64,000 nucleotides of DNA, taken from assembly GCF_003018115.1 (NCBI RefSeq), contig NZ_CP027457.1. One strand, 5' to 3'. This stretch comes from Escherichia coli (lineage in GTDB: Bacteria > Pseudomonadota > Gammaproteobacteria > Enterobacterales > Enterobacteriaceae). Shown here piece by piece: positions 56,591-57,979 of the stretch. The translations under genes were made by a program, and so were the position numbers. The notes beneath the pieces are model-generated. The model made no database searches. It was not told the origin of the DNA and saw only the letters and a list, made by a program, of their open reading frames with translations. How positions within the stretch are numbered: position 1 is the first letter of the stretch; every line of letters starts with the position of its first letter.

Positions 56591-57523
56591 ATGCGTCGTG
56601 TAAATATTCTTTGCTCATTTGCTCTGCTTTTTGCCAGCCATACTAGCCTGGCGGTAACTTATCCATTACCTCCAGAGGGTAGCCGTTTAGTGGGGCAGTC
56701 GTTTACTGTAACTGTTCCTGATCACAATACCCAGCCGCTGGAGACTTTTGCCGCACAATACGGGCAAGGGTTAAGTAACATGCTGGAAGCGAACCCGGGC
56801 GCTGATGTTTTCTTGCCGAAGTCTGGCTCGCAACTCACCATTCCGCAGCAACTGATTTTGCCCGCCACTGTTCGTAAAGGGATTGTGGTTAACGTCGCTG
56901 AGATGCGTCTTTATTACTACCCACCAGACAGTAATACTGTGGAAGTCTTTCCTATTGGTATCGGCCAGGCTGGGCGAGAAACCCCGCGTAACTGGGTGAC
57001 TACCGTTGAACGTAAACAAGAAGCTCCAACCTGGACGCCAACGCCGAACACTCGGCGCGAATATGCGAAACGAGGGGAGAGTTTGCCCGCATTTGTTCCT
57101 GCGGGGCCCGATAATCCCATGGGGCTGTACGCGATTTATATTGGCAGGTTGTATGCCATCCACGGTACCAATGCCAATTTTGGTATTGGGCTCCGGGTAA
57201 GTCAGGGCTGTATTCGTCTGCGCAATGACGATATCAAATATCTGTTTGATAATGTTCCTGTTGGGACGCGTGTGCAAATTATCGACCAGCCAGTAAAATA
57301 CACCACTGAACCAGATGGCTCGAACTGGCTGGAAGTTCATGAGCCGCTGTCGCGCAATCGTGCAGAATATGAGTCTGACCGAAAAGTGCCATTGCCGGTA
57401 ACCCCATCTTTGCGGGCGTTTATCAACGGGCAAGAAGTTGATGTGAATCGCGCAAATGCTGCGTTGCAACGTCGATCGGGAATGCCTGTGCAAATTAGTT
57501 CTGGTTCAAGACAGATGTTTTAA
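56591..57523 (+). CDS. ldtA: L,D-transpeptidase (ErfK/YkuD family)
   Basis: 310 aa from [10 protein letters not shown]; signal peptide; catalytic-region motif [11 protein letters not shown]. Confidence 0.9.
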
Positions 57524-57549
57524 GAGCGTTGGTAATTAGAAAGCAAAAA

Positions 57550-57573
57550 GCCTGCTAGAAAGCAGGCTTTTTT
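57550..57573. terminator. Hairpin gcctgct agaa agcaggc with T-run, shared by convergent ldtA and tRNA-Asn
   Basis: Perfect 7 bp stem followed by T6 on the plus strand. Confidence 0.7.
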
Positions 57574-57578
57574 GAATT

Positions 57579-57654
57579 TGGCTCCTCTGACTGGACTCGA
57601 ACCAGTGACATACGGATTAACAGTCCGCCGTTCTACCGACTGAACTACAGAGGA
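57579..57654 (-). tRNA. asnV: tRNA-Asn (GUU anticodon)
   Basis: 76 nt; reverse complement reads TCCTCTGTAGTTCAGTCGGTAGAACGGCGGACTGTTAATCCGTATGTCACTGGTTCGAGTCCAGTCAGAGGAGCCA; gene name assigned from K-12 synteny. Confidence 0.95.
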
Positions 57655-57908
57655 ATCGTGTGAACGGGGCGCATATTAATGGCAGTGCATGGTGATGTCA
57701 AAGGGTGAAATGCATTTTTTTGTTTGTTTGCTGTCAATTTCAACAAAGTGATGAGATTTCAATCTTATTGGTAATGAACCATCGTGGTGCATACCCTCCT
57801 TTTATAGGGCAGGGGAACGCGACTGCTGGTGAAAAGAGCCAATGACGAATCTATCATAATCTCTTATTTGACAGTTGGTTAGCTTGTACATCAACGCCAA
57901 AATAAAAC

Positions 57909-57924
57909 TGGCAAGCATCTTGCA
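57909..57924 (+). promoter_or_regulatory. Sigma-54 (-24/-12) promoter candidate for nac
   Basis: TGGCAAGCATCTTGCA fits the TGGCAC-N5-TTGCW consensus, 56 bp upstream of the nac start. Confidence 0.65.
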
Positions 57925-57979
57925 GTCTGGTTGTAAGTAATGGCGGCACTTGGGCCGATTCTCAAAAACCGGAGGCAAC

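Follow-up and report, generated by a model that had tools for sequence, protein, structure and literature searches.

The 16-base motif TGGCAAGCATCTTGCA at 57909-57924 (+) is the already characterised sigma-54 promoter of E. coli nac (nacp), and its recognition from the DNA letters in the earlier note was a correct, if ordinary, finding. We regard it as almost certain that the locus carries a native nacp in an E. coli chromosome, from which transcription is sigma-54-dependent and activated by NtrC-P. The basis for this is twofold. Sequence elements, matrix and consensus scores and positional conservation were obtained here from the window (the whole 64,000-nucleotide stretch of DNA that was analysed) and from related loci, and sigma-54 and NtrC occupancy and NtrC-dependent expression come from the literature on the identical K-12 sequence. 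Three parts of the model are inferred: where exactly transcription starts, that a second upstream block belongs to NtrC, and that Nac represses its own gene in E. coli. We found nothing that contradicts the nacp explanation.

This locus has been a textbook example of a weak-enhancer sigma-54 promoter since the 1990s, and the result has little significance beyond correct annotation of the nac promoter. Its product is the adaptor that carries the sigma-54/NtrC response to nitrogen starvation over to sigma-70 promoters. Added here are base-exact window coordinates for the promoter, the enhancer and a probable Nac operator, together with a regulatory layout that recurs at near-fixed distances in other Enterobacteriaceae genera.

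The -24/-12 element of nac

The motif reads as it had been given, with GG at 57910-11 and GC at 57922-23 enclosing 10 bases, which is the canonical -24/-12 spacing, and its last base lies 56 positions before the ATG at 57980, in agreement with the 56 bp originally counted. The downstream gene had been taken to be nac, and both an equivalog score and the RefSeq annotation bear this out. The coding sequence 57980..58897 (+), named nac in RefSeq, encodes a LysR family protein of 305 aa that scores 599.5 bits as the NAC equivalog NF008410 (NCBIfam) against a cut-off of 309, aligned over 1-305/305 from the ATG at 57980. This start codon is preceded by a Shine-Dalgarno sequence, GGAGG, at 57971-75, and cbl is the gene next after nac. 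On the combined grounds of sequence, matrix score, ChIP-seq listing and conservation we delimit the sigma-54 element as the 17-mer CTGGCAAGCATCTTGCA at 57908..57924 (+).

Agreement with a consensus goes only part of the way. TGGCAAGCATCTTGCA fits 10/11 specified bases of TGGCAC-N5-TTGCW, but with up to one mismatch allowed this consensus is expected 3.2 times on both strands of the 64-kb window, where it was found once; a pattern this loose is not rare, so the consensus match alone is not decisive. The motif might on this count (about 3 per window by chance) be a chance resemblance, with nac driven by a sigma-70 promoter elsewhere in the spacer, where a weak GTGAAA-17-TATCAT (9/12) at 57829-57857 (+) is the sole + strand candidate. 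We consider such an arrangement extremely improbable. A log-odds matrix built from 41 intergenic sense sigma-54 ChIP-seq sites (Bonocora et al. 2015, PMC4591121, Table 1), with the nac site left out, returned the clear sigma-54 match that the earlier note had proposed looking for by matrix scan: CTGGCAAGCATCTTGCA ranks first among 127,968 window positions at 17.7 bits, above the runner-up at 14.1 and above the median of the validated sigma-54 sites (16.0). Chance matches with such a score are expected about 0.07 times per window and about 2e-4 times in the 325-bp asnV-nac spacer on the correct strand, and a matrix made from EcoCyc-confirmed sites alone leaves the ranking unchanged. Moreover, the promoter core is invariant in 81/81 loci at a fixed distance to the ATG, and sigma-54 ChIP-seq has been published on the identical sequence. 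The sigma-70-like sequence, by comparison, occurs at chance level (3 found versus 2.3 expected), and part of it falls where conservation between genera is poor.

The motif also contains an inverted repeat, GCAAG-ATG-CTTGC, which a terminator scan picks up at 57923..57911 (-) as a hairpin (5-bp stem, 3-nt loop) with the T-rich CAGTTTTATT after it. That the repeat is a small antisense terminator or hairpin, and not a promoter element, is nevertheless scarcely credible: terminator-like sites in the region stand at chance level (2 found versus 1.3 expected), no minus-strand gene ends at 57911-57923, and the stem is not conserved, as the Enterobacter and Lelliottia spacer TGGCATTCATATTGCA cannot pair while GG and GC are invariant.

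Taken as a sigma-54 promoter, the element lies on the + strand and places the predicted nac transcription start 45 nt ahead of the ATG. The rule of Bonocora et al., 19 bp downstream of the motif centre, gives 57935 (+), which agrees with C57923 as position -12, and the predicted 5' UTR accordingly extends over 57935-57979 (45 nt). Within it, at 57944-57957 (about +10 to +23), is a small hairpin, CGGC-ACTTGG-GCCG. Single-sequence folds place a small hairpin at approximately +10 to +28 of the nac 5' UTR in most genera, weakly supported at a mean z-score of only -0.74; the stems differ between genera (GCCAG...CTGGC in Klebsiella and Citrobacter, for example), and RNAalifold on the nac 5' UTR returned no consensus structure.

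According to the literature, an ntrC (glnG) mutant loses nac induction. The element in the window is identical to that of K-12, for which Bonocora et al. 2015 (PMC4591121) list CTGGCAAGCATCTTGCA as sigma-54 ChIP-seq site OS19, upstream of nac (b1988) on the K-12 minus strand, with a fold-above-threshold score of 24 and a predicted start 45 bp before nac. OS19 carries the flag 'C', for sites with experimental confirmation in EcoCyc, and the study, which cites Muse & Bender 1998 for it, used it as a positive control. Both rpoN-dependent nac expression and a start mapped at the equivalent of ~57935 are reported in literature cited by PMC4591121. Genomic SELEX gave peaks in the nac/asnV spacer with NtrC alone, with RpoN holoenzyme alone (52%) and with RpoN plus NtrC (86%) (PMC8743547). 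Furthermore, nac transcription shifts about 60-fold with the glutamine/Ntr state (PMC10657418). At nac-cbl, NtrC ChIP-seq gave a peak enriched 59.6-fold (Brown 2014, PMC4066584); its interval, U00096.2 2059941-2060021, takes in the promoter and the first part of the gene, and the predicted enhancer lies about 130 bp further upstream, so the peak does not pinpoint the site. The NtrC- and sigma-54-dependent expression put forward in the earlier note is therefore supported by K-12 identity, the EcoCyc-confirmed site, NtrC ChIP-seq, SELEX and expression data.

Second or third among the sigma-54 matrix matches in the window, at 14.0-16.1 bits, comes CTGGCACGCTAAACGCA at 60300-60316 (+), near the 5' end of the yeeO gene and inside it. 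Neither the main text nor the supplementary files of Bonocora et al. 2015 mention this sequence, and for this reason it is probably not bound.

The region upstream of the promoter

The earlier note had identified no NtrC enhancer sites by eye and had proposed a search of 57750..57900; a scan for NtrC motifs fills this gap with a site inside that interval. The palindrome TGAACCATCGTGGTGCA at 57775-57791, centred on 57783 (about -152), fits 13/14 specified bases of the NtrC consensus TGCACCA-N3-TGGTGCA (as cited in PMC8743547), and an NtrC motif from ChIP-exo has been given as GCaCcaaaAtgGtGC (PMC9853098). It is the sole site in the 64-kb window within three mismatches of this consensus, of which 0.02 occurrences per window are expected at up to one mismatch. 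Judged by its sequence, it is the predicted high-affinity NtrC (NRI) enhancer site of nac.

About a dozen activators serve E. coli sigma-54 promoters, and the NtrC ChIP-seq interval leaves the enhancer unresolved; sigma-54 holoenzyme might then bind as described and depend for activation on an enhancer-binding protein that is not NtrC. We think this very unlikely, given a near-perfect NtrC palindrome whose position is kept across genera, the binding of NtrC to the nac/asnV spacer in vitro and in vivo (PMC8743547, PMC4066584), and the place of nac in the described NtrC regulon (PMC4591121, PMC10657418).

A second block adjoins the strong NtrC palindrome. Its conserved right half lies 20 bp downstream of the palindrome and reads TAGGGCA or TGGGGCA; in the window it is TAGGGCA at 57805-57811, and in the consensus it is ATGGGGCA, at 57804-57811. 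The full candidate, at 57795..57811 with its centre at about -132, resembles an NtrC site in 5-6/7 positions of the right half and is poor in the left (2/7). The block is kept at at least 85% across 80 sequences, and T[AG]G[GA]GCA starts at -128 to -131 in about 63/72 loci with normal enhancer spacing; in most of the nine loci with a deletion between enhancer and promoter it is displaced along with the enhancer. We take 57795-57811 as a probable low-affinity NtrC site adjoining the strong one. In K. aerogenes, Feng et al. 1995 reportedly described a strong NRI site with a weak one beside it in the nac enhancer, and on that precedent the block is putatively assigned to NtrC. The strongest conservation in the enhancer region is found here, in (T)ACCCC-N4-GGGGCA at about -132 (57795-57811), and not in the strong palindrome, and the arms of this repeat stand one base closer together than those of an NtrC site. 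The block could thus belong to an undescribed factor or be a structural element instead of a weak NtrC site, which we think unlikely.

Between the enhancer and the promoter lies a candidate Nac-like operator, ATCATAATCTCTTAT, at 57853..57867 (centre about -75), which matches ATA-N9-TAT with one mismatch and agrees with the ChIP-exo Nac motif ATAagnaaaanttAT (PMC9853098). Within Escherichia the site is invariant and its flanks variable, and in about 56/81 loci AT-N8-CTTAT has its centre at -74 to -76. In K. aerogenes, the Nac repressor has been reported to bind between the activator and the core promoter (PMC4740811, citing Feng 1995). It is plausible, on the strength of the motif and its placement, that Nac probably represses its own synthesis in E. 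coli through 57853-57867. The Nac motif alone is not rarer than chance in the window (7 found versus 9.4 expected), and the site is missing from Citrobacter freundii-type and Kluyvera-type loci; for both reasons we put autorepression in E. coli no higher than that. A perfect ATA-N9-TAT at 57791-57805 was considered as a Nac site and rejected, as it is not conserved outside Escherichia. Inspection by eye of the stretch between enhancer and promoter revealed no IHF-like site, and the sole conserved block there is the Nac-like site.

The far side of the spacer belongs to a divergent promoter, that of asnV (tRNA-Asn), with TTGACA-17-TAATAT at 57673-57701 (-) followed by a GCGCCCC discriminator, and a T-rich stretch lies directly upstream of its -35 hexamer (asnV region 57713-57745). 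A conserved palindrome, TGCTGTCAATTTCAACA (consensus TGCTGACAATTTCAGCA), occupies 57729-57745 with its centre at 57737. In 69/70 loci it keeps a constant 83 bp from the 5' end of the tRNA-Asn gene, about -71 from the likely tRNA start, whereas relative to the nac start it lies anywhere from -180 to -206. A role as a third NtrC site or other nac regulatory site was rejected on these distances, and the palindrome belongs to the divergent asnV promoter. It loosely fits G-N3-A-W5-T-N3-C and stands at the classic position of a FIS site, for which it is a candidate.

Conservation and genomic setting

We compared the window with 80 nac loci from other Enterobacteriaceae, one per species genome and with 79-99% protein identity, giving 81 regions in all. 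The genera include Escherichia, Citrobacter, Enterobacter, Lelliottia, Kosakonia, Kluyvera, Klebsiella, Raoultella, Leclercia, Siccibacter and Phytobacter. TGGCA-N6-TTGCA is present in the best matrix match of all 81 nac upstream regions, ending 47-60 bp before the ATG, and the alignments show no variation in this core. In 71/81 regions the centre of the best NtrC-like palindrome falls at -150 to -153; it lies at -130 or -131 in seven Kluyvera-type loci (L036, L047-L049, L059, L060 and L063) and at -140 or -141 in two Pseudocitrobacter loci (L052 and L054), and in L076 an equally good NtrC-like palindrome is found at -153. The shorter distances correspond to enhancer-promoter deletions of about 22 bp (Kluyvera-type) and about 11 bp (Pseudocitrobacter), two helical turns and one, so that the helix face of the enhancer is kept. 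The ~22-bp Kluyvera-type deletion also takes out the Nac-like operator. These loci would offer natural tests of helical phasing and of the loss of autorepression.

From the tRNA promoter to the ATG, the family-wide alignment contains few conserved blocks: the NtrC palindrome, ATGGGGCA at 57804-57811, the CTTAT end of the 15-mer at 57853-57867, AAACTGGCA...TTGCAA at 57905-57925 and the ribosome-binding site. Substitutions within Escherichia cluster between these blocks, and none falls inside them. Some complete E. coli genomes match the 181 bases spanning enhancer and promoter at 100% identity, and in 5415/5426 of such genomes at least 80% of this query is covered. RefSeq annotates no features under the enhancer-promoter match, leaving the nac regulatory sites unmarked, and an Rfam scan of 57500-58100 reported tRNA only.

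The gene order in the window, cobT-ldtA-tRNA-Asn-nac-cbl-tRNA-Asn-yeeO-tRNA-Asn, is that of the asnV-nac-cbl-asnU-yeeO-asnW region of E. coli K-12 in reversed orientation. The three tRNA-Asn(GUU) genes (asnV, 57579-57654; asnU, 59987-60062; asnW, 61811-61886) share the same anticodon and bracket nac-cbl and yeeO. In other species, several draft contigs stop approximately 280-390 bp upstream of nac, which is consistent with assemblies breaking at repeated tRNA-Asn genes. A further locus, L083 (E. coli AR13438, NZ_CP097170.1), carries an IS3-family transposase at 1706-2934, between the nac enhancer and nac, and a tyrosine recombinase/integrase gene just past the tRNA-Asn gene. This arrangement suggests an island integrated at asnV, and nac regulation in this strain is probably disrupted by the IS3-family insertion.

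Proposed mechanism and related promoters

We propose the following model for nacp. Sigma-54 RNA polymerase would bind at 57908-57924, through the -24 GG and the -12 GC, as a closed complex that is unable to open alone. Under nitrogen limitation, when glutamine is low, NtrC-P would form and occupy the strong palindrome at 57775-57791 (-152) and probably also the weak adjacent site ending at 57811 (-132). Oligomerised NtrC would then loop the DNA to reach the closed complex and, through ATP hydrolysis, convert it to an open complex, allowing transcription from about 57935 through nac and also, as the literature has it, through cbl. Nac, probably bound at 57853-57867 (-75), would interfere with this loop and so damp its own synthesis. 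The presence of a single strong site would make for a weak enhancer, active at high NtrC-P only, and late induction of nac has been reported (PMC10657418).

The closest known system is the nacp of K-12 itself (Muse & Bender 1998; EcoCyc; OS19), which has the same 17-mer, NtrC palindrome and Nac-like site as the window. The NtrC, Nac and RpoN sites convert to about 2062130, 2062053 and 2061997, respectively, on K-12 NC_000913.3. Over 441 bases, from upstream of the asnV tRNA gene into nac, the two differ at 10 substituted positions, by one 1-bp indel and by one terminal gap, all of which lie outside the elements, and the gene order cobT-ldtA-asnV-nac-cbl-asnU-yeeO is the same. The differences are strain-level polymorphism between elements only, and the window holds the same locus in another strain.

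The nac promoter of Klebsiella aerogenes/pneumoniae (Feng, Goss, Bender & Ninfa 1995) shares this layout, and the literature ascribes to it a weak enhancer (PMC10657418) as well as the intervening Nac repressor (PMC4740811). In the K. pneumoniae locus L077, CTGGCAAGCAAATTGCA precedes the ATG by 57 bp, and an NtrC-like site, TGGGGCA and ATCACTATCCCTTAT stand at -152, -130 and -75, respectively. The sequences of the -24/-12 spacer and of the stretches between sites differ from those of the window, and at left-half position 3 the strong NtrC site of E. coli carries A instead of C.

The E. coli promoter glnAp2, the model for NtrC/sigma-54 promoters, likewise depends on the same sigma factor and the same activator, acting from an upstream enhancer via DNA looping, and its -24/-12 element, TTGGCACAGATTTCGCT, appears in the same ChIP-seq table as that of nac (PMC4591121). 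The two differ in their enhancers: glnAp2 has two high-affinity NtrC sites, whereas the nac region of the window has one near-consensus palindrome only. In keeping with this, the nac enhancer has been described as weaker than that of glnAp2 (PMC10657418), a difference through which, according to the literature, nac is switched on later and at higher NtrC-P.
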